DNA of 64,000 nucleotides, from positions 1-64,000 of the IMG/VR virus record IMGVR_UViG_3300045958_000007. One strand, given 5' to 3'. Shown one piece after another: positions 4,821-54,238 of the stretch. The translations under genes and the position numbers were made by a program. Source of the stretch: a virus (Duplodnaviria; Caudoviricetes). Numbering within the stretch: position 1 is the stretch's first letter; the number at the start of each line of letters is the position of its first letter. Below the pieces are notes generated by a model. That model did not search any database and was not told where the DNA came from. It worked only from the letters and a program-made list of their open reading frames with translations.

Positions 4821-5936
4821 TTACGCCCCGGGAACCGCGGGCACCGCGCTCAGGATGTCGGCCAGCGCGCCGCTCGGCGCCGCGAGCGCCGTGCCGGGGA
4901 TGAAGCTCGATGCCCCGTAGCTTGGCATCCAGAGCGATCCCGAGGAGTAGGGCGTGAACCCCTCGGGGGCCCCGCCGGTCGCCCCCATGCTGTTGAGACC
5001 TTGCATCATCCCTGCGCCCATGGCCGCGTTGCCGATGCCGCTGAGGGCGCCTGACCACGCATTCGCGCCGCCCATGATCCCGGCCGCCTGCGCGTTGGCC
5101 GCGCCGGTGCGGAAGTTGCCTGCCATCTGCGCACCCTGAAGTCCGGTGTTGCCGATGTACTCGTTACCCTGCATCGCGACGTTCGACTTGAGCCCGGCGC
5201 CCTGCAAATTGGTGTTGGCCGCGAGATTCGCAAGCGAGGTGAGCTCGCCGCCATAGATGCCGCCGGCCTGAATCGCCTGCTGGTTCGCGGTGGTGCCGAG
5301 TCCCGCGAGCGAGAGGTAGCCCTGCTGGTTGGTGTTGAACGTCGAGAGCGCGCGGTTGTAAGCGTTCTGGTAGCTGGTTCCGGCGAGGCCCTGCGCGTAG
5401 TTCTCGGTGGCCTTGAGCGCCGCCCCGGACTGCAGCATGCCCCGCGCCGCCTGCGAGTTGCCGAGGGCCTTCATGCCCTGCTGTAGCTGGAACTGATAGC
5501 CCGGGTCGTTCTGCAGCTCCTGCGGATTGAAGCTGAAGGTTCCGGCGGTCGATTGGAGCTTGTTGAGCCCGTAGGTTCCGGCGGCCTGATAGGGCTGGAG
5601 GCCCCCGGTCATTCCGGCGTAGATTCCGGCCTGCGCGGTACCGGCGTTCCCGATGGCCGTGTTGGCGGCGCCTACTCCGGTGTCGATCGCGGTATTGGCC
5701 TGCCCCATGCCGGCATAGCCGGCGTCAATTGCCTGCCCGGCGGCCTTGTCCACCGCGCCCGCCGCAGCCTGCCCGGCCGCGGCCTGCGCCTTCGCCGCCC
5801 GGCTGGCCGCCGACGATCCGATGATGCCTCCAATGAGGGAGGTGCCGGCCGAGATCGCCGAGAACGGGTCCATCAGGCGCACTCCGGCCGGATCGCCGAG
5901 GGGGAACATCTCGGCCAGTTGATTTTTCGTTAGCAT
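4821..5936 (-). CDS. DNA transfer/ejection protein (P22 gp7-like)
   Basis: G/A/Q-rich; N-terminal AISAGTSLIGGIIGSSAASRAAKAQ, DPGYQFQLQQG motif; ATG 5936 overlaps upstream stop (alternative ATG 5873). Confidence 0.65.
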   Translation of the reverse strand: MLTKNQLAEMFPLGDPAGVRLMDPFSAISAGTSLIGGIIGSSAASRAAKAQAAAGQAAAGAVDKAAGQAIDAGYAGMGQANTAIDTGVGAANTAIGNAGTAQAGIYAGMTGGLQPYQAAGTYGLNKLQSTAGTFSFNPQELQNDPGYQFQLQQGMKALGNSQAARGMLQSGAALKATENYAQGLAGTSYQNAYNRALSTFNTNQQGYLSLAGLGTTANQQAIQAGGIYGGELTSLANLAANTNLQGAGLKSNVAMQGNEYIGNTGLQGAQMAGNFRTGAANAQAAGIMGGANAWSGALSGIGNAAMGAGMMQGLNSMGATGGAPEGFTPYSSGSLWMPSYGASSFIPGTALAAPSGALADILSAVPAVPGA

Positions 5937-6406
5937 TTGGGTCTCTTCGCCCGCATCACCAGCAGGTCGTACAACTCTCCGTTTTTCGTGCCGGCATCCG
6001 GCACCGTTGCGCAACGCTCGAAGCCCGCGCGCAGCGCGAGCCGCAGCACGAGGCGGTTATAGGACGGCACCGGCCCGCGGATCTCCTCGTACCTCGTCGC
6101 GCCCCAGGCCCACGCAAGAAACTCCCGCACCAGCGCGACGGTCGAGCCCCATACCCGCGGCGCGCAGCAGATATGCACCTCGGCCACGCCCGAGCCGGCC
6201 CAGATCTCGGCCAGCAGAAACACCGCCGCGGCAGCTCCGGCGCCGTCGAAGGCGACGATCCAGTCCGCGCCGCGAACCGGCCCGACCGTCGCCAGCTCGC
6301 GCGGCCGGGCGCCGTCGTGGACCATGCGCCGGTAGCACTTCGGATCCGTGAGAATCGGGCGGATCAGGCTGTAGTCGGTCGAGCGCGCGAACCGGAAGCG
6401 CGGCAC
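5930..6406 (-). CDS. GNAT-fold virion assembly protein (P22 gp14-like)
   Basis: 158 aa with AEVHIC, PSYNRLVLRLALRAGF; directly upstream of gp7-like gene as in P22. Confidence 0.6.
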   Translation of the reverse strand: MPRFRFARSTDYSLIRPILTDPKCYRRMVHDGARPRELATVGPVRGADWIVAFDGAGAAAAVFLLAEIWAGSGVAEVHICCAPRVWGSTVALVREFLAWAWGATRYEEIRGPVPSYNRLVLRLALRAGFERCATVPDAGTKNGELYDLLVMRAKRPKC

Positions 6407-6409
6407 GGC

Positions 6410-7243
6410 TTAGTCGACGTCTCCGGTGTAGCGGTTCCAGCCGCTCCGTCCGCGGATCGGCATGATTCCGGGGTTCACGTCCATCTGCGGGGTCGGGGCG
6501 TTCATCGACTCGATCGCGGCGGCCGAGCGCAACGCCTCGGCGCGGGTGTCGTCAGTCACCGATGCCCCCTGCTCCTTGAAGACGCTCGCCAGGCGGACCG
6601 CGAGGTTATTGACGAACCAGTCTTCGTAGCCGTCCGGCCAACTCACCAGGTCGTTGACCGTGGCGAGTCTTGATAACGTCTGCCATGTGTACAGTTCGAG
6701 CTGGTCGGCCCCGGTGTCCTGCGTCCAGATGTAGACGTTGGCGGTCGGATAGGCGTAGTCGCAGTAGAGGACGGTGGGGACGCCGTTCGGAATATCCTGC
6801 AGCCGCATCCCCGCCCACTGCTGGTTGTCGAAGATCCGCATCGGCAGATGCACCGGCGCGGCGCCGCCGGGCTGCAGGAGCACGAGATTGGCGCGGTCGA
6901 TCGAGTCCGTCCCCGGGCGCACGCTCGTCCCGCTGGTCGAGATCAGGGTGCCGCCCGGCCCGAGCGTGTACTGCTTGACGCCCGCCTGGAGGTTGTACAG
7001 ATCGCTCCGCAGGCTATAGACCATCAGGCGGTTGGTATTCGCCTGCCCGATCATCAGGTTGCCCTGCCTGAGACAGTCGCCGAGCTGGTCCGGGCTTGGG
7101 GCCCGTGCGCCGGCATCGGCGAAGCGCGTCACCCCGGCGAGGCGCAACGCCATATAGAAGAGATCACTGACTTTCGTGCCCTGCGGCGCGGTGCCGGTTC
7201 CGCTACCCCCGCCACCCCAGAGAGAAGATCCGAAGGTGCCCAT
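6410..7243 (-). CDS. Head-tail adaptor, P22 gp4-like (paralog 1)
   Basis: VSDLFYMALRLAG, LQAGVKQYTLG, WPDGYEDWFVNNLAVRLA; aligns by eye with 9409..10104. Confidence 0.65.
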   Translation of the reverse strand: MGTFGSSLWGGGGSGTGTAPQGTKVSDLFYMALRLAGVTRFADAGARAPSPDQLGDCLRQGNLMIGQANTNRLMVYSLRSDLYNLQAGVKQYTLGPGGTLISTSGTSVRPGTDSIDRANLVLLQPGGAAPVHLPMRIFDNQQWAGMRLQDIPNGVPTVLYCDYAYPTANVYIWTQDTGADQLELYTWQTLSRLATVNDLVSWPDGYEDWFVNNLAVRLASVFKEQGASVTDDTRAEALRSAAAIESMNAPTPQMDVNPGIMPIRGRSGWNRYTGDVD

Positions 7244-15357: not shown

Positions 15358-16614
15358 TTAGCCGCAGATGCGCACGCCCCAGTCGCCGCGCTGCGCAACC
15401 CAGCCGAACATGATGTCGCAGCGGGTAGCAAAGATGTCGTTCACGATGTCGTACTGGGACACCGTGCGGATCGACATCCCGGTGGCGGGATCGGTGGCGC
15501 GCTTCGCCATCTCGACCGCGCGGGGCAGGTCGAGCGGCACGCAGGCCCAGGCGTAGGCTTCCTTGTGGAAGGCCATCGCCTGCGGGGTCAGCGTTCCGGC
15601 GGTGCCGAACAGGGTCAACGCCGCGCCGGAGAGCGGAGTCGTGTTGCAGGTGGCATACGGATTCGGCAGGCCGTTGTTGTTGGTGCCGACCGCGATCGCC
15701 GGGTAGATGGGCACCACGCCGTTGCCCGAGCCGTCCGCGTTCACCGGAGCGGTGACCACGAACTGCCGCAGATCGCTCAGGGTGTCGCCCGAAACCGGGT
15801 TCACCGCGTAGATCGGGGTGCCCCCGACGCCGAGCGTGAACACGTCGCCGGCGTTATAGACGTTCTGCGCGTTGGGGGTGAGGCCGTTGATGACGAGGGC
15901 GCTGCCGGTCTGGCCCGCGCCGTTGACGACCGGGGTGCCCGCGCCCGAGCCGATCGTGTGGGTGCGGATGTTCTGGGCGAGCAGCCAGTCGAAGCCGGCG
16001 CCGGTGCCCATCCGCCCTTTGAGGTACTGCTTTTTGATCTGCTCCGAGCTCTGGAACAGGCCTTTCAGGGTATCGATGATCTGGGTCTGGAACTTCGACG
16101 CGATCACCATGTACCGCTGCTCGTCGATCGGCGCCGAATTGCGGTCCAGGGCCTCGAGAGCGGAGAGGTACGTCTGGAAGGCGGTCGAGCCGTTGGGCAC
16201 GCTGCCGGGGGTGCCGACCACGTTCGGAGTAGCCTGGTAGGCCACGGTGAGGCCGACCACTTCGGCGGCGTTCGACAGCGCGATCGCCGCGCCTTCGATG
16301 TAGCGTTCGCCGATGCGGTCGATCGAGAGCGTCTGTTCGGCCGAGGTGAAGCTGAAAGCGGTGTGCTTGCGCTGGTTGATGACCAGCGGGATTTTCCGCT
16401 CTTCGACGTCCTGGATGACCAGGTTGGCGCCGTCGACGGCAGCGAATCGCACCGGATCCCGGAGCGAAAGGGTGTCGCCGATCTTGGCGCCCGGTTTGGC
16501 GAAGTGCTCGGACCAGTCTTCGTGGTGAACGGCTTTGGCAAAGCCGAGGTTGTTTTGGAAGCGCCGCAGCAGTTCGTTGGTGATGATCTGCGGCGTAAGA
16601 ATCGTATTGGACAA
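15358..16614 (-). CDS. Major capsid protein, P22 gp5-like
   Basis: 418 aa; MSNTILTPQIITNELLRRFQNNL, KIGDTLSLRDP, AFHKEAYA, TRCDIMFGW. Confidence 0.9.
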   Translation of the reverse strand: MSNTILTPQIITNELLRRFQNNLGFAKAVHHEDWSEHFAKPGAKIGDTLSLRDPVRFAAVDGANLVIQDVEERKIPLVINQRKHTAFSFTSAEQTLSIDRIGERYIEGAAIALSNAAEVVGLTVAYQATPNVVGTPGSVPNGSTAFQTYLSALEALDRNSAPIDEQRYMVIASKFQTQIIDTLKGLFQSSEQIKKQYLKGRMGTGAGFDWLLAQNIRTHTIGSGAGTPVVNGAGQTGSALVINGLTPNAQNVYNAGDVFTLGVGGTPIYAVNPVSGDTLSDLRQFVVTAPVNADGSGNGVVPIYPAIAVGTNNNGLPNPYATCNTTPLSGAALTLFGTAGTLTPQAMAFHKEAYAWACVPLDLPRAVEMAKRATDPATGMSIRTVSQYDIVNDIFATRCDIMFGWVAQRGDWGVRICG

Positions 16615-16620
16615 GGGGAC

Positions 16621-17733
16621 TTACCTTTTCTTGAGCTGCGCCTCCCGCGCTTTGACCCACTTGGCGTAATCGTTGGCGTCCTGGTCCGACATGGGATCGG
16701 CTTGAGGGGCTAATGGTCTTCCGCCGAGGTGGGCGGGAGGGCGCGAGGCGCGCGATGGCTGTTGTTTCGGTTGCGGTTTTGGGGCAGGCTTCGGCGCTGC
16801 GGCTCCGGGCTTGGCGGCGCCCTTATCGGCGGCGGCGCCCTTGGCGGGCGGCGCAATCCGGGTGCGGATCTCTCCGAGCAGCATGCCGGCGCGGGCGAGG
16901 GCGACCCCCCATTCGCGCTCGTTGGTGGCGAGCGTCGAGCGGGCGATCTTCTCGGACTCCTCCGGGTGCTGGCCGAGGTAGTAGGCGATCTCGGTGCCGG
17001 CTTCCGGGTCCATGCGCATCACGGACTCCATGGCGGCCGAGATCTTCACCGCGGGATTGGCAACGACCTCGTTGTAATCGGCAAACCTTGCGGCGGCGCG
17101 ATTCCATTCGGCCTGCGCGGAAGTCCGCGCGTGCTCTTCCTCGAGGGCCTGCTTCTGCTTCGCCAGGGCGGCGGCTACCTTGCGCTCGGTGAGCGCCTGG
17201 TTGTAGGCGTCGAGCGCCTCCTCGTACTGGTCCCAGGCGGATTTCTCGTCGGTGTCCTCGAAGTCCCGTAGCATCGGGCGGGCGAGCGGCTTGTCCGCCT
17301 CCTCGTCCACTGTTTCCGTGGAGGACGCTGCTTCCTCCGTAGCTTCCTCTCCCTCCTCCCCTCTGGTGAGGGCATCGAGGCGGGATTGGAGCTCCGCGAT
17401 TGTGCCGGTCAGCTTCCGCATGCGCCGGGCGAGGCGCTTATCCTTCTCGGGCTCCTGTTCCTGGGCGGCCTGTACTTCTTCCTGCTCCGCTTCTCCCCCG
17501 GGCTCCGACTCCGTGGCGCTTTGGCCCTCCCGGATTTCTTCTTCTTCCTCGGAGGACTCGGATGGCGGCGTGACTCTGGCGCCCGCCGCGGGCGCTTCTT
17601 CTTCCTGCTCTTCGGCCTTCGCCGGCACCTCGCCGGTCTCGCGGAAAGCCACGAAGGATTCGTAATCCTCCGGGATCTCTACATAGTCCTGGTCGGTCTG
17701 GGCGACGAGGGCGTCAGTTAGTTCGGACTGCAT
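16621..17733 (-). CDS. Scaffolding protein
   Basis: Acidic N-half, PLARPMLRDFE, C-terminal DYAKWVKAREAQLKKR; directly upstream of coat. Confidence 0.75.
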   Translation of the reverse strand: MQSELTDALVAQTDQDYVEIPEDYESFVAFRETGEVPAKAEEQEEEAPAAGARVTPPSESSEEEEEIREGQSATESEPGGEAEQEEVQAAQEQEPEKDKRLARRMRKLTGTIAELQSRLDALTRGEEGEEATEEAASSTETVDEEADKPLARPMLRDFEDTDEKSAWDQYEEALDAYNQALTERKVAAALAKQKQALEEEHARTSAQAEWNRAAARFADYNEVVANPAVKISAAMESVMRMDPEAGTEIAYYLGQHPEESEKIARSTLATNEREWGVALARAGMLLGEIRTRIAPPAKGAAADKGAAKPGAAAPKPAPKPQPKQQPSRASRPPAHLGGRPLAPQADPMSDQDANDYAKWVKAREAQLKKR

Positions 17734-17813
17734 GCGTTTGGGTGTTTCTCCAATGCGGGGATGTTCGCGGCGTACAAAGCCCACCGCTGGGCGGGTACTG
17801 CTGAAGTCGTGAG

Positions 17814-19299
17814 TTATGCGGCCTGGGCAATCTCAGGCGGAGGTGCGCAAGGCATGATCGAGCGTGCAATAAGCAAGCGCCGCAACAAGCGGCACGACGC
17901 CATTTCCCAATGCGCGTAGTCGGTCGACGCGAGAGCCTCCATGCTCGTCCACCCGACCGGCACGCCCATCAGATGCTCGACAAATCGCGGGTTCAAGATC
18001 CGGGGCGAGCAGGAGCAGCCGACGCCATGCTCCGAGGTCGGCGGGGCCGGGAGGGAAAACCGGGATATATCCTGTTTCAAACAATGCCGGCGTTTCGGCG
18101 ATCCCGCGCTTTCGGCCTCCTGCGCGGTGGGCGTCGACCACTGCCCTGCCGTCTCGCAAAGCGGCCTCGCGTTCCTGCGCTTGATCTTGTCCGTGACGGC
18201 TGAACGGTAGTCCTTCGCCTGCGGAGTCGGCCATTCCTTCACATGCCACTGCAGGTTGCCGCCCCGGTGTTTGGCCGTGTTCGGCCTCTGCGGGCCGCTC
18301 ATCGCTCCGACCGTATGGGTTGGCCAGAACCGCGCCTGCTGATCCAAGCCCTGCTCGTCCCTGCGCTCGCCGCCCCGCGAGCGAAATGAATCGGTGGCCG
18401 GGGTCTGCCAGCGCATCACCTGTTTGGCGAATTCCCCGCCGCCCCCGGCCGTCTTCCCGCGCTTGTCGGTGTTCTGGAAGCCGTGCGGAGTTTTCCAGGT
18501 TGCCGCTTCCTCCGCCAGAATCTTGCCGCCCGTTCCCGGCTTCCGCGTGCTCATCCGCACTCCCTGCGCCGTAACCGTAGGCCAGGTTTTCGCGGCCATC
18601 GCTAACGGCACCCCGCAGCCGTTGCCGTTGTAGCCTTTGGCTTTCATGGCGGCTTTCCGCTTCAGCCACGTCTCGGGCTGCTCGCCGTCCTGCGAGATGG
18701 CCGCGTCCGGGCTGGGCCAGGTCCGCGCCGCGCCCGTCAGCGAATCCTGCGCCCCCGGATGATTCCCGGCGCTCTCCGCGTCCTCCGCCCTCGCGCTCGG
18801 CCAGGCAGAAGAGCCGCCGGGCGCCGGTGGGGGCCCCCGACTTCTGCCGCCGTAAAGAGTCCCGCCGCGCACCTGTAACCCAGGCGTCGTAACTCGCACG
18901 CGACTTCAAAGAATCCGAGTCGAGCATGGGCGTCCACGTTTTCGAGGAAGACCCTCCCGGGCTGGCATTCCCGGATGATCCGGGCGACGTGCGGCCAGAG
19001 GTGGCGCGGGTCCTTTTCGGCCCGCTGTTTTCCGGCGCAACTGAACGGCTGGCACGGGTAGCCCGCGCAGAGGATATCGACCTTTCCCTTCCAGGGGCGG
19101 CCGTCGAACGTCTTAACGTCGCTCCAAATTGGCGCAGGACGGAGGGATCCGTCTTCAAAGCGCGCAACCAGCCTTTGCGCGACAGTGATTTCCCTTTCCA
19201 CGTAGCAGACGGTTCTAACTTCGCCGCAAGCGAGTCGTAATCCGAGGTCGATGCCGCCGTATCCGGCGCAGAGGGAGAGGACGGTAGGTATATCCACAC
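17814..19299 (-). pseudogene. Alternative-frame methyltransferase beta chain (motif IX-like), split by the same extra base
   Basis: GTG 19299 MWIYLP... joins ...GGSSAWPS...LNPRFVEHLMGVPVGWT after removing one base (494 aa). Confidence 0.6.
17833..19297 (-). pseudogene. C5-cytosine DNA methyltransferase alpha chain (motifs I-VIII and X) split by one extra base near 18819-18821
   Basis: GTG 19297: LSLCAGYGG, AGYPCQPFS, LENV, GGPHRR then +1 shift to RLFCLAE...RLRALGNGVVP; removing one base gives 487 aa. Confidence 0.8.
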
Positions 19300-19307
19300 G
19301 GGTTCGG

Positions 19308-21542
19308 TTATGCGGCCTGGGCGGCTTGCGGCCCAGCCGGTTGCTGCGCCTGCGCCTGTTGCGCGGCCTGCTGCTGGTCAAATTGCTGCTGTTGCTGTTG
19401 CTGCTGCTGTTCGTGCTGTTGCTGGGCCTGCTGCATCTGCTGCGCCTGCTGGAACTCCCGCTCCTGCCCGGCGGCGTCGGCCGCGATGGTGAGGTTGGCG
19501 TGCTCCAACTCGGCGCGGAGATCGAGCGCGTGTTTGACCCCGGCGTGATCGAGTTGCGCGAGCTGCGTCATCTGCGCGCTCTTGGCCGTGGTCTCGGCCA
19601 CCTGGAGCCGGGTCCGGTTGTTCTCGGTGTTCATCCGCTCCTTCGACTCGATATCGAGCATCTTGCCCTTGAGTAGCTGGAGCAATTGCTGGTTTTCGAC
19701 CGTGAGCGCCTGGATCAACTGCTGCCCCTGCTGGAGCTGCGCCTGGATGGCCGGCGGGATGGCGTGCTCGTCCTCGTCCTGCAGGTTGGCCGGGAGCATC
19801 TTCTTCAGGCGCTTGGCGATCCGGTCGGCGCCGGGGAAATCGGAATTCTCGAAGTAGATGTCGGCGACGAGTTGCATCAACTGCGGGTTGCCCTGCGCCA
19901 GCGCCATCAGGGTGTCGCGCGTCTCCTGCCGCGCCGACGTATAGCTGGGCCCCTGCTCCACGGTGACGTCGTACTTGCCGACGTCGAGGCGATGGTGCTT
20001 GGTGCGGCCGTCCTGGTCGGTGAACGGGGCATTGACCCTGATTACCCGCTGTTTCTGGTCCTCCCCGATGATGCGGATTTCGCGGGCCGTATCGTACTTC
20101 TTGGGGATGAGGTCGAGGAGGATGCGTCCGGCGCGCTTGAGGGCGCGCGCCAGGTTGTCCATGAAATGAAAATTGGAAACGTCCCCCTGCTTCTGCAGCT
20201 TGCCCACGGCAACGCCGGAGAGGTCCTCCTTGACCGCGCCGAGCGAGGGGTCGAAGTATCCGGTCGAGGCCTTGATGTCGTCCGCAGCCGCCGCGGCACC
20301 GATCGAGAGGGCCTGCACCGGCGGGTCGAAGGTCCGCCATTGGGGCTCGGGCGCCAGCTTGTCCCCCACGGCCACGGCGTCATATTCGAGATAGGCCGCG
20401 TTGTCGCTGTTTGCGCGCTGCCAGTCCTTGCGTTTCGTTTTGAACTGGCCGACCGCCCCTACCCATTTCGGTTTGGGGGCTAAGGCGATGGTTTCGGCTT
20501 CCATCGTCTTGTAGAAGTTGAGGAGCTGCTGCGGATCGCGGGCGAACCGCGTCATCGAGAAGATGCGGCGCTCGCCCCGCACGATCATCTCGAGGCCGGT
20601 CACCATCACGATGGGGATGGTGGAGCCGTCCCACGGGGTCGGCTCCTCGAGCACCTGCGCGCCGTTGATGATGTACTGGGTTACCTGCGGGATCGAGACC
20701 GTGCGCTCCAGGATCTCGCCGTCCGGGCCGGTGGCCCAGTCCATCGCCTCGATATCGGCGTCGGTGAGGCCGTCCTTCTCCTTGAGGTCCTCCAGGTATT
20801 CACGGTGAAGGGTTCCGTCCTCTTCGCGGCGCATCCGGAGGGTCTTTTGGACTTCCTGGACCTCCCAATACTCCGCGACGAGCCGCGAGGTGGCGTCCAT
20901 CCACCCCTCGTTTTCGAGGTCGGTGGCGAATTCGTCGGACAGGTCCGAGGCGTCGGGGCCGAAGCGCGCTTCAAAGGCGTCATTGGCGAAACGCTCGAGC
21001 ACGAACCCCCACTTGGCATCGGAGCGGTCGGGCTTCCGCGCATAGCAATCGAGGTAGATCGAAAACGGATCGTCGACCGTGACCGTCTTGAGGTCCTGGT
21101 CGAAGCTCTCGTTGTCGGTGTACTCGGAGGTGTAGCGCCAGTAGCCGAAGCCGCAGCCGGCGGCGTAGAACAGGGCCGTGTCGTAGGCCTGCTCCGCGTC
21201 CGAGTCGTACTCGATATGGCGGATCAGCCCCTGCAGGACCTTGGCGGTGTCGGGGTCGCCTGCCGAGTCCACCGGGTTGACCCGGATGGCCGGCTTGTTC
21301 TGGCGCGCCTGGTTGCCGAGTTGGGTAACCGGAGGCAGGACTTTGTTGAAGACGAGGCACGGCCGCGGCGAGGGGCCGCGCTCGCGATCACGCTTCACCT
21401 TCTGGTCCCACTGCTGGCCGGCGAGAAACTCCAGGTCGATGAGCGCCTCCCGCCTGATTTCCTGCTCGGCGGCGACGGCCTGCTGATATCTTTTCCGGGC
21501 TCTCTCGAGGACTTGCCGGTACTTACTCTGGTTGAGCGGCAT
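19308..21542 (-). CDS. Portal protein, P22 gp1-like
   Basis: DLEFLAGQQW, RPCLVFNKV, RHIEYDS, DPQQLLNFYKT, FHFMDNLARAL; Q-rich C-terminal barrel. Confidence 0.9.
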   Translation of the reverse strand: MPLNQSKYRQVLERARKRYQQAVAAEQEIRREALIDLEFLAGQQWDQKVKRDRERGPSPRPCLVFNKVLPPVTQLGNQARQNKPAIRVNPVDSAGDPDTAKVLQGLIRHIEYDSDAEQAYDTALFYAAGCGFGYWRYTSEYTDNESFDQDLKTVTVDDPFSIYLDCYARKPDRSDAKWGFVLERFANDAFEARFGPDASDLSDEFATDLENEGWMDATSRLVAEYWEVQEVQKTLRMRREEDGTLHREYLEDLKEKDGLTDADIEAMDWATGPDGEILERTVSIPQVTQYIINGAQVLEEPTPWDGSTIPIVMVTGLEMIVRGERRIFSMTRFARDPQQLLNFYKTMEAETIALAPKPKWVGAVGQFKTKRKDWQRANSDNAAYLEYDAVAVGDKLAPEPQWRTFDPPVQALSIGAAAAADDIKASTGYFDPSLGAVKEDLSGVAVGKLQKQGDVSNFHFMDNLARALKRAGRILLDLIPKKYDTAREIRIIGEDQKQRVIRVNAPFTDQDGRTKHHRLDVGKYDVTVEQGPSYTSARQETRDTLMALAQGNPQLMQLVADIYFENSDFPGADRIAKRLKKMLPANLQDEDEHAIPPAIQAQLQQGQQLIQALTVENQQLLQLLKGKMLDIESKERMNTENNRTRLQVAETTAKSAQMTQLAQLDHAGVKHALDLRAELEHANLTIAADAAGQEREFQQAQQMQQAQQQHEQQQQQQQQQFDQQQAAQQAQAQQPAGPQAAQAA

Positions 21543-49721: not shown

Positions 49722-51062
49722 GTGCGCGCGCTCCTCCTCCATCTCGACGGCAAGCTGCCGAATCTCGCTTTGATGCGGATTGCCGCGCATCATCGCTCGC
49801 TTGGCGACGACGTGGAACTGCGGCGGCCCCAAAACCCCAGGATGATCGAGCGCGGGCTCTGGGATGCTCCGGACCGGGTATATGCAAGCCTAGTTTTCCG
49901 ACGAACGATCCCCCTGGCGTTGCGGTTGAAAGAGGTTTACCCCGACGCGATTCTGGGCGGAACGGGTTGGGACCGGCGCGTCAGGCTGGAGCAAGTGGGT
50001 ATCGAGACACCGAATCTCGACTACAGCGTTTATCCGGGCTATGCGCACTCGATCGGGTTTACGCAACGCGGGTGCCGGATGAGCTGCGAGTTCTGCGTTG
50101 TGCCGGCCAAAGAGGGAAGGCCACGCCCGGAAACATCAGTCCGGAAGATCTGGCGTGGAGAGCCGTGGCCGCGGCACCTTCTGTTGCTCGATAACGATTT
50201 CGGTGGCCTGCCTGGCTGGCGCGAGAACGCCCGTCAGATTATCGAGGGCGAGTTCAAGGTGTGCTTTTGCCAAGGCATCAACGCGCGGCTGCTAAATGAA
50301 GAACTGGCCGAGGCGCTGGGCGCGATGAAATGCACCGATGACGACTTCAAGGAGCGGCGCATCTACACCGCCTGGGACAGCCGCCGCGATGAGAAGATCC
50401 TTTTCCGTGGGCTCAACTGGCTGGTGGCCGCGGGTTTCCGTCCCGACGACATCATGGTCTACATGCTCATCGGCTACTGGCCGAACGAGACCGTTGAAGA
50501 TTGGGAATACCGCCGGGGCAGGCTTCGGGATTTCGGATGCAGGCCCTTCCCGATGGCTTATATTGACAGCACCACCACGCCCGATGAGGCGAAGCTGCGC
50601 CACGGCTTCCAGCGGTGGGTGATTCGGCGCGACGACCTGAAAATGTCATGGGCTGAGTTCATGGGTGCCGGCTTCCGGCCGGAGAAGGTGAGACGGTGCG
50701 CCGAGTTACCGATTTTGGAAGTGCCAATGACGGGTGAGCGCGTGAGCCCTTACGGTCACCATTGGCGCACGGTGCTCAGGCCCGAGACTCTCGCCCGGGA
50801 CTGCTACGAGTGCGTCCGCTGCGGGGTCGGCGATCGCCCGCGGGGGCTGCGCACGGCGCTCGAGGTGGCGCACCTGGACGGCGACGTGACGAACAATGCC
50901 CCGGAGAACCGCGCTACGCTCTGCAATACGTGCCACAAGGCGCACGACCATGAGGCCTGGTGGCCGAAGTTCCAGGCGTGGCTGCTCGCGGAGCGGGAGC
51001 GGAAGATCGACGCGGCCGACGCGCGGCGGCCGATTCTGGAGTACTTGAGGGAGGCGGTGTAG
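49722..51062 (+). CDS. Phage radical SAM protein with in-frame C-terminal HNH nuclease domain
   Basis: PNLALM, RGCRMSCEFCVVP (CxxxCxxC), LLDNDF; then CVRC...EVAHLDG...NNAPENRATLCNTCHKAHD. Confidence 0.8.
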   Translation: MRALLLHLDGKLPNLALMRIAAHHRSLGDDVELRRPQNPRMIERGLWDAPDRVYASLVFRRTIPLALRLKEVYPDAILGGTGWDRRVRLEQVGIETPNLDYSVYPGYAHSIGFTQRGCRMSCEFCVVPAKEGRPRPETSVRKIWRGEPWPRHLLLLDNDFGGLPGWRENARQIIEGEFKVCFCQGINARLLNEELAEALGAMKCTDDDFKERRIYTAWDSRRDEKILFRGLNWLVAAGFRPDDIMVYMLIGYWPNETVEDWEYRRGRLRDFGCRPFPMAYIDSTTTPDEAKLRHGFQRWVIRRDDLKMSWAEFMGAGFRPEKVRRCAELPILEVPMTGERVSPYGHHWRTVLRPETLARDCYECVRCGVGDRPRGLRTALEVAHLDGDVTNNAPENRATLCNTCHKAHDHEAWWPKFQAWLLAERERKIDAADARRPILEYLREAV

Positions 51063-53672: not shown

Positions 53673-53800
53673 CCCCTCCCTGCGCCTGGCCGTTTCGTCC
53701 TGGGGCGTCCTGGAGCCCGAAAGGTGGCTAAATTTCGGCGAGAGGCAGGAAAATGGACGTTATGGCCGATTTCACGCGCGCTACTGGTGGGAGTCGAAGA

Positions 53801-54073
53801 GTGAACCGTCGCGGATTTCTCGCCCTGCTCGCCGGCGCCGTCCTCGATCCCGAGCGGCTGCTTTGGCGGCCGGGAGCAAGGCTCATCTCCATCCCCGCCC
53901 CGGCCCCGGCGCCGGCGCGGATTCAGGTTTGCGAGATTCTTACGCCGGAGGTGATCTCCTCCGAAGTCCTCCGCATGATCCAGGCGCACCTGATCGACAT
54001 GAGCCGGATCAACTTCCACTTCCACCGGGATGCGTTCGCGTTCGTCAGCGAGCCGCTCGGGGACCGCTGGTGA
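53801..54073 (+). CDS. Tat-like leader fused to two coat-protein-like segments
   Basis: MNRRGFLALLAG; ILTPEVISSEVLRMIQAHL; FHRDAFAFVSEPL. Confidence 0.7.
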   Translation: MNRRGFLALLAGAVLDPERLLWRPGARLISIPAPAPAPARIQVCEILTPEVISSEVLRMIQAHLIDMSRINFHFHRDAFAFVSEPLGDRW

Positions 54074-54238
54074 CCCGCGGGGAGCAAGGGCTGGCTCCTC
54101 TGGCTCGTCGTCTTATGCGGCTGGTTGGTGCTCTCGATCGCGTTCGGCCTGTCTGACGGGCCAGTGACGGGCCTGATCGCGGCCGGCGTCGGGATCGTGC
54201 TGTGGGCGTTCATCTCGCTCATGGCCCATTTCGGCTGA
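54070..54238 (+). pseudogene. Two-TM membrane protein with apparent +1 frameshift (G run 54079-54082)
   Basis: GTGA start; removing one G gives MTRGSKGWLLWLVVLCGWLVLSIAFGL...GIVLWAFISLMAHFG. Confidence 0.5.

Follow-up and report, generated by a model that had tools for sequence, protein, structure and literature searches.

We report that a small accessory gene of a soil phage with a complete 73-kb genome encodes a 90-residue protein that belongs to a very large family of short proteins, in which a nearly invariant leader is joined to a variable tail. In roughly one member in five, as judged from profile and alignment scores, the tail was copied long ago from part of a P22-type coat protein and has diverged since then while still under selection. 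The stretch of DNA analysed here, referred to as the window, comprises 64,000 nucleotides (positions 1 to 64,000 of IMG/VR record IMGVR_UViG_3300045958_000007, a member of the Caudoviricetes), and all coordinates refer to it. The record itself is a complete genome of 72,928 bp obtained from soil that carries only one member of the family.

Neither the family nor its design was found in Pfam, PHROGs, NCBIfam, PADLOC, PDB, 50,697 GenBank phage records or the open literature that we searched. A design that occurs in thousands of phage lineages, and that combines a putative export-type handle with selected copies of the phage's own capsid pieces, would imply a widespread and still unknown step in phage biology that makes use of structural-protein mimicry. 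This step could be assembly control, phage-phage competition or the handling of host sensors of capsid proteins. The leader, being short and nearly invariant, lends itself to direct tests and to searches for all members of the family. The 90-residue member adds two features of its own, as it is one of two tails among 237 that join non-adjacent coat motifs and it has an in-frame membrane ORF behind its stop codon.

Identification of the gene and its features

The preliminary description of this DNA had proposed a 90-codon ORF, and this ORF is confirmed as a real gene by its GTG-to-TGA frame, by a Shine-Dalgarno-like site and by a GC content at the three codon positions (0.67/0.50/0.79) that follows a coding pattern (Table 1). 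As 168 of 238 relatives begin two residues ahead of the twin arginine of the leader, GTG 53801 is the likely start and the upstream ATG at 53753 an unlikely one. A profile of the leader scored 66.7 bits (E 6e-20) at this ORF and no higher than 7.7 bits (E 0.18) elsewhere in the 73-kb genome. Searches around the gene revealed no promoter-like site and no convincing terminator. The protein had no match in PHROGs, PADLOC or NCBIfam, and its best hits among PDB sequences, at E values of 0.2-1, are chance matches (EGFR and ribosomal protein L10a).

Table 1. Positions of the leader-plus-coat-piece gene, its parts and the head genes discussed in the text
Feature	Position	Strand	Remarks
Leader-plus-coat-piece gene	53801..54073	+	GTG start, TGA stop at 54071-54073; 90 aa; start fits the family norm
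GGGAG, Shine-Dalgarno-like site	53789..53793	+	7 nt upstream of GTG; read from the sequence
Conserved leader, residues 1-32	53801..53896	+	alignments, synonymous-codon spread, profile search
Leader twin arginine (RR)	53807-53812	+	residues 3-4
Leader 11-residue Ala/Leu/Gly stretch	53813-53845	+	
Leader motif DPERLLWRPGARLISIP	53846-53896	+	
Pro/Ala-rich linker, residues 33-45	53897..53935	+	modelled as coil
Segment 1, residues 46-64, copy of coat N-arm helix	53936..53992	+	10/19 identities to coat 5-23
Segment 2, residues 74-86, FHRDAFAFVSEPL	54020..54058	+	resembles coat motif FHKEAF..PL; colinear alternative exists
Two-helix hydrophobic ORF, same frame after TGA	54074..54238	+	54 codons; GC3 0.91 vs 0.59 and 0.50 in the other frames; Kyte-Doolittle 2.5
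Major coat protein, P22 type with I-domain	15358..16614	-	418 aa; PF11651 E 4.7e-32, profile positions 3-423
Coat N-arm motif	16546-16602	-	
Coat motif FHKEAYAWACVPL	15532-15570	-	
Head scaffolding protein	16621..17784	-	PHROG head scaffolding, E 1.9e-10

A large family with a selected leader

A homologue search yielded 62 close relatives, all of them short, which share only their first ~33 residues and have unrelated C-terminal parts. When a profile was searched against 1.84 billion representative sequences, 3,426 clusters were recovered at E ≤1e-3 and 2,180 at E ≤1e-10. Among the best 150 of the 3,426 clusters the proteins are 50-224 aa long with the leader at or near the N-terminus, and the 5-95% length range of the family is 77-153 aa. 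The leader was found in longer proteins only as two weak matches, of 159 and 203 aa. For the invariant residues of the leader all synonymous codons are used (5-6 for Leu, 4 for Pro, 4 for Gly and 5 for Arg in the 57 genes for which DNA was available), which indicates that it is the peptide sequence of the leader that is conserved rather than a DNA or RNA element. Purifying selection on the leader is strong, and in the sole pair of closely related genes suitable for measurement it acts on the tail as well, with dN/dS values of 0.03 for the leader and 0.08 for the tail.

Nearly all occurrences of the family are in uncultured soil phages. We located 75 family loci on IMG/VR viral contigs and five further contigs among bacterial genomes representing 185,579 species, all five from metagenome-assembled genomes (assigned to Bryobacteraceae, Terrimicrobiaceae, Armatimonadota and Rugosimonospora); the 50,697 GenBank phage records gave no match. 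The identity of the tail changes quickly between related phages. Additionally, four loci (L034, L038, L067 and L069) hold two family members each, some of them in tandem, with different tails; in L067, for example, an I-domain-like piece stands beside a copy of the N-arm. Such pairing of members that carry different tails suggests sets of complementary pieces.

Tails derived from the coat protein

The Pfam coat model lacks the sensitivity needed for tails of 20-60 residues, giving a match to only one of 67 at an E value of 0.33, and we therefore used a profile of our own that was built from 119 coats and controlled with shuffled sequences. At a threshold of at least 8 bits, 50 of 237 tails matched this P22-type coat profile compared to 0.1 expected from the shuffles. 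Of the matching tails, 19 fall on the coat N-terminus, 25 on the I-domain region and 5 on the C-terminus. Likewise, 141 real 18-residue windows reached at least 5 bits as opposed to 0 of 4583 shuffled ones, and tblastn searches showed that tails match the coat genes of other loci. In the case of the L036 and L046 tails, the coat of the same phage was the best match among 126 coats.

In L054 (4971-6853, plus strand) there are three neighbouring mini-genes, each with a piece of the coat. The first combines the family leader with a C-terminal coat piece, the second (within 5641-6048) has no leader and carries KIGDTITLRPPARF, and the third (within 6287-6853) has a copy of the coat N-arm behind a different twin-arginine-like start, MSRRIFFGVLGG, that is without DPERLLW. 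The tail of the family member P0242 appears to hold a piece of the coat spine helix (profile positions 93-124) followed by the N-terminal strand IGD..R.P.RY (positions 29-58), which is not the native order; the second of these two coat matches is weak at 4.1 bits.

The tail of the 90-residue protein

Like the coat-matching tails of its relatives, the tail of the 90-residue protein matches pieces of the phage coat. The preliminary description had reported two segments resembling regions of the resident coat that lie about 330 residues apart, and both its counts and this distance proved correct: the ten identities of segment 1 are as listed in Table 1, and segment 2 aligns to coat residues 349-361 with 6/13 identities and four conservative replacements. 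In a BLASTP comparison of the tail with the resident coat, segment 1 plus its extension gave an E value of 9e-5 and segment 2 one of 0.018. On the 119-coat profile the whole tail scored 11.7 bits in a colinear alignment to positions 4-46, and segment 1 alone 6.7 bits (positions 4-23). Segment 2 alone scored 5.7-6.0 bits at positions 331-346, the site of the FHKEAF..PL motif. The protein as a whole does not match the Pfam model P22_CoatProtein (PF11651), only ~45 of its residues being coat-like; it is derived from that family rather than a member of it and does not have the full HK97-type fold with P, A and I domains.

The resemblance of segment 2 to the coat is real. None of 1000 shuffles reached its score of 6.0 bits (the highest was 4.2), and none of the 4583 shuffled 18-residue windows reached 4 bits compared to 5.7 for segment 2. 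The pattern FH[KR][ED]A[FY] occurs three times in tails, once in the unrelated tail P0278, against an expectation of 0.001. The two-motif architecture, on whose presence in homologues the preliminary description had made its reading depend, recurs in the nearest relatives, L005 and P0312, and in the analysis of 18-residue windows the 90-residue member and L005 are the only ones of 237 tails that combine two separate coat regions. A low-depth related contig differs at window positions 54011-54018 by three non-synonymous changes, N71H, F72I and H73R, that cluster immediately ahead of FHRDAF and leave FHRDAF itself identical.

How segment 2 came to its place is a separate matter. The preliminary description regarded the two segments as spliced, which stands as the better-scoring placement of segment 2 but falls short of proof, as a gapless colinear alignment to coat residues 24-47 is the alternative. 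The tail could thus be a plain colinear copy of coat residues 4-47, containing the N-arm and the F-loop and cut at IGD, with the likeness to FHRDAF..PL due to chance or convergence and no splice at all; we give this origin nearly an even chance, and regard splice and colinear origin as about equally probable. In its favour, the gapless BLASTP alignment spans coat residues 5-47, the spacing from L23 to G46-D47 is identical, F38-A39 match, and ~19 other tails of the N-arm type are colinear through IGD..R.P.RF. Furthermore, in L005 and P0312 the FH motif comes after the N-arm and precedes the IGD strand, with a spacing to IGD of exactly 12 residues, an order that could not be produced by deleting the middle of the coat and hence argues against a true splice. 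However, the colinear extension barely beats its shuffles (28/1000 and 111/1000 reach it), and the shuffle results for positions 331-346 and the excess of the FH pattern, including its occurrence in P0278, count against this origin.

Whichever origin applies, the copy is old. The resident coat is only an average match to the tail, ranking 33rd of 116 coats, with 10 identities in segment 1 as compared to 11 for the best other coat and 6 as compared to 8 in segment 2; we consequently rejected a recent origin of the tail from the resident coat. The coat-invariant residue E14 is retained in the tail as E55, but the invariant R18, N21 and F25 have been replaced by M, A and D, respectively, and the near-invariant F19 by I.

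Structural models of the coat and of the tail

An AlphaFold2 model of the coat (pLDDT 84) was matched by Foldseek to the Sf6, CUS-3 and P22 coats at TM scores of 0.65-0.77 (for example, Sf6 5l35 at E 1e-24 and P22 8i1v at TM 0.77). This model places a helix at residues 8-21 in the N-arm and strands at 342-350 and 355-358. In P22, the N-arm (residues 2-30) is a helix that binds the C-terminal helix-loop-helix of the scaffolding protein via D14, E15 and E18, and residues 346-357, right after the I-domain, belong to the A-domain (PMC9965877). According to the P22 domain map, the two coat pieces would therefore correspond to the N-arm helix and to the first A-domain strand after the I-domain. Since these are parts of different domains, the contiguous capsid "epitope" that had been suggested for the two segments is unlikely, a judgement based on the P22 domain map and on the secondary-structure elements of the coat model rather than on coordinates. 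The AlphaFold2 model of the 90-residue protein shows the tail as one long helix (residues 49-81, pLDDT 93-96 over residues 50-70) behind a leader of low confidence. Compared to the P22-type coat N-arm (PF11651; residues 2-30 of P22 gp5), segment 1 keeps the predicted helix and the pattern LTP..I..E.L..L..L. It differs in being part of a free-standing piece of ~45 residues that is fused to a leader; this piece lacks R18, N21 and F25 and does not form an HK97 fold by itself.

The leader and bacterial Tat signals

The ~33 N-terminal residues common to the family consist of a twin arginine within M-N-R-R-G-F-L, a stretch of Ala, Leu and Gly and then the motif DPERLLWxPGxKLISIP. The preliminary description had called this leader Tat-like, a reading that sequence comparison supports for the family but that is weak for the 90-residue member. 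Across the family the twin arginine is invariant, RRxFL is present with F6 conserved in at least 90% of members, and the twin arginine is followed by 11-16 residues of which Ala makes up 31%, Leu 22% and Gly 15%; only 6% of members have charged residues there. The Pfam model TAT_signal (PF10518) matches 18/67 members and NCBIfam TIGR01409 matches 16/67, the best E value being ~2e-4, so about a quarter of the family scores on both models. The family thus shares with bacterial Tat signals an RR within RRxFL near the N-terminus and a moderately hydrophobic Ala/Gly/Leu stretch. It differs from them in that the leader is far more conserved, has the extra DPERLLW-containing motif and a very short n-region, and lacks an AxA cleavage site.

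In the 90-residue protein itself, the leader has every residue of the family pattern (RR, an 11-16-residue Ala/Leu/Gly stretch, DP[ED]xLLWxPG and KLISIP), and residues 2-8 (N-R-R-G-F-L-A) agree with the twin-arginine consensus S/T-R-R-x-F-L-K. However, its leader does not match PF10518 or TIGR01409 at E values up to 1-10, its hydrophobic stretch of 11 residues belongs to the shortest class in the family and lies below the ~12-20 residues expected of Tat signals, and no conserved AxA site follows the hydrophobic region, the sole APA-R in this member being 24 residues downstream. The named protein-language-model neighbours nearest to the protein are Tat substrates, which we treat as a lead only. 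The phage record does not contain tatC.

That the leader provides the membrane tether that had also been put forward is unlikely. Besides the shortness of the hydrophobic stretch, the hydrophobicity of family leaders in a 19-residue Kyte-Doolittle window has a median of 1.0, and no leader reaches 1.6. With no leader at the hydrophobicity level of a transmembrane segment, the leader is not expected to act as an anchor. The 17-residue motif is the best-conserved part of the leader and lies outside the Tat consensus, and a search of 596 Gb of bacterial genomes matched its pattern in only 13 stretches. As this motif is foreign to bacterial Tat signals, the leader may have another partner.

Genomic context

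The gene is part of a block of plus-strand genes that are unknown or DNA-related, and the head module (portal, scaffold and coat) lies on the minus strand at a distance of 32 kb. Its downstream neighbour is a weakly VWA-like gene. An ORF of 446 aa at 49722-51062 (plus strand), 2.7 kb upstream, encodes a radical SAM domain (PHROG 9298, E 4e-45; CxxxCxxC) fused to a C-terminal HNH nuclease domain. In the head module, a C-5 cytosine DNA methyltransferase is located between portal and scaffold (17814-19381, minus strand; Pfam E 4e-27 for 18737-19381), and the overlapping long ORFs in this region suggest a split or frameshifted gene.

No gene neighbour is conserved across the related loci, and the radical-SAM gene had no match in the 79 loci compared. 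Proximity to head genes is frequent, as ~16/55 relatives lie within 1 kb of a large terminase or portal gene (rough binomial probability 4e-6 against an expectation of 8%). In L036, L019 and L076 the stop and start codons of the family gene and the terminase or portal gene overlap. The orientation relative to portal or terminase varies, being convergent in L012, L046 and L042 and divergent in L073, which looks like insertion at module borders. Neither a PADLOC match nor a defence context was found for the 90-residue protein gene.

Possible functions

We tentatively favour a reading, to which we give somewhat less than an even chance, in which the 90-residue protein is an N-arm mimic that competes for the ligand of the N-arm while its leader engages a conserved host machine. 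Speculatively, the tail would imitate the coat N-arm helix and could compete for the scaffolding protein, for an adjacent coat subunit or for some host protein by which the coat is recognised. The leader would then couple the bound ligand to the host machine, most probably the Tat translocon. This reading has to contend with the loss of R18, F19, N21 and F25, which fits a mimic poorly, with the average rank of the resident coat, and with the frequent proximity of relatives to terminase and portal genes, which could point to head assembly. Two other small proteins, CpmB of SaPIs and Sid of P4, are known to influence capsid assembly by taking up an interface that a head protein normally uses. 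Unlike the 90-residue protein, they are satellite-encoded, their function is proven, they lack an export-type leader and they are not made of coat fragments.

An alternative that we consider unlikely is that the leader is a cytoplasmic docking peptide for the portal, the terminase, the scaffold or the procapsid interior, which would make the protein a minor head-assembly factor or an internal head protein. The clustering of relatives near terminase and portal, including the overlapping stop and start codons, is what such a role would predict, and a docking function also suits the motif outside the Tat consensus, the short hydrophobic stretch and the missing cleavage site. However, the variable orientation of the neighbouring genes, the 32 kb that separate the gene from the head genes in this phage and the combination of RRxFL with an Ala/Gly-rich stretch, a specific Tat signature, speak against it. 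The internal proteins of T4 with their capsid-targeting sequence, and likewise RiPP precursors, share with the family a conserved N-terminal peptide followed by a hypervariable C-terminal part. They differ from it in that there is no linked maturase or prohead protease here and in that the tails, of 30-160 residues, come from structural proteins.

A broader version of the N-arm mimic, which we regard as less probable still, is that a Tat-type handle joined to mimics of virion interfaces forms a general device common to thousands of uncultured phages. Such a device would capture proteins that bind these interfaces, for example a host capsid sensor or the assembly protein of a rival phage, and either export them as Tat "hitch-hikers" or park them at the translocon; a leaky UGA-C stop might also give some of the molecules a two-helix membrane anchor in this phage.

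The preliminary description had itself suggested an exported or tethered capsid epitope within reach of incoming virions or of immune sensors in the membrane. That such an epitope acts on them as a decoy is in our judgement improbable. The leader is of an export type, the tail is coat-derived, and its quick turnover between related phages is as expected of arms-race genes. Moreover, CapRel, Lit and Pif are bacterial defences that are triggered by capsid proteins. The known capsid sensors are cytoplasmic, however, and infection does not bring the coat into the periplasm. The two pieces come from different coat domains, the leader is too weakly hydrophobic for an anchor, and PADLOC and the neighbouring genes give no indication of defence. 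The T4 Gol peptide with Lit, the major capsid protein with CapRel, and DSAD1, which contends with the tail tube for DSR2, are capsid-derived triggers or trigger-site competitors of bacterial immunity. They resemble the present case in that a host sensor can be engaged by no more than a short stretch of a capsid protein, or by a protein that competes for the site of such a stretch, but they act in the cytoplasm and none is a phage gene that joins a piece of the phage's own coat to a leader. We know of no sensor for the P22-type coat of this phage.

Two further readings are very improbable, namely that the gene is what is left of a duplicated coat gene decaying without a function, or that it encodes the precursor of a RiPP-like product which the nearby radical-SAM enzyme matures. 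In their favour are the shortness and divergence of the fragments, the radical SAM-HNH gene close by and the arrangement of RiPP precursors, in which a variable core likewise follows a conserved leader. Against them, the leader (and, in the one measurable pair, the tail) is under strong purifying selection and the members number thousands with a constrained length; the lack of linkage between the two genes in other genomes led us to reject a radical-SAM maturase.

An in-frame membrane ORF behind the stop codon

Directly behind the TGA of the 90-residue protein gene, the same frame continues as an ORF for two strongly hydrophobic helices (Table 1). It has no ATG, GTG or TTG before the TTG at 54125, and no in-frame membrane ORF was present behind the stops of 56 related genes from the loci. 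The ORF may be expressed by stop-codon readthrough, giving a membrane-anchored form of 146 aa, or from an unusual start. Genome-wide recoding of TGA was considered and rejected, as TGA ends 12 of 31 confident genes. The context of the stop is TGG-TGA-C, and the TGA is also present in a second assembly. A low-depth variant contig has a 1-nt deletion at 54086, within the ORF.
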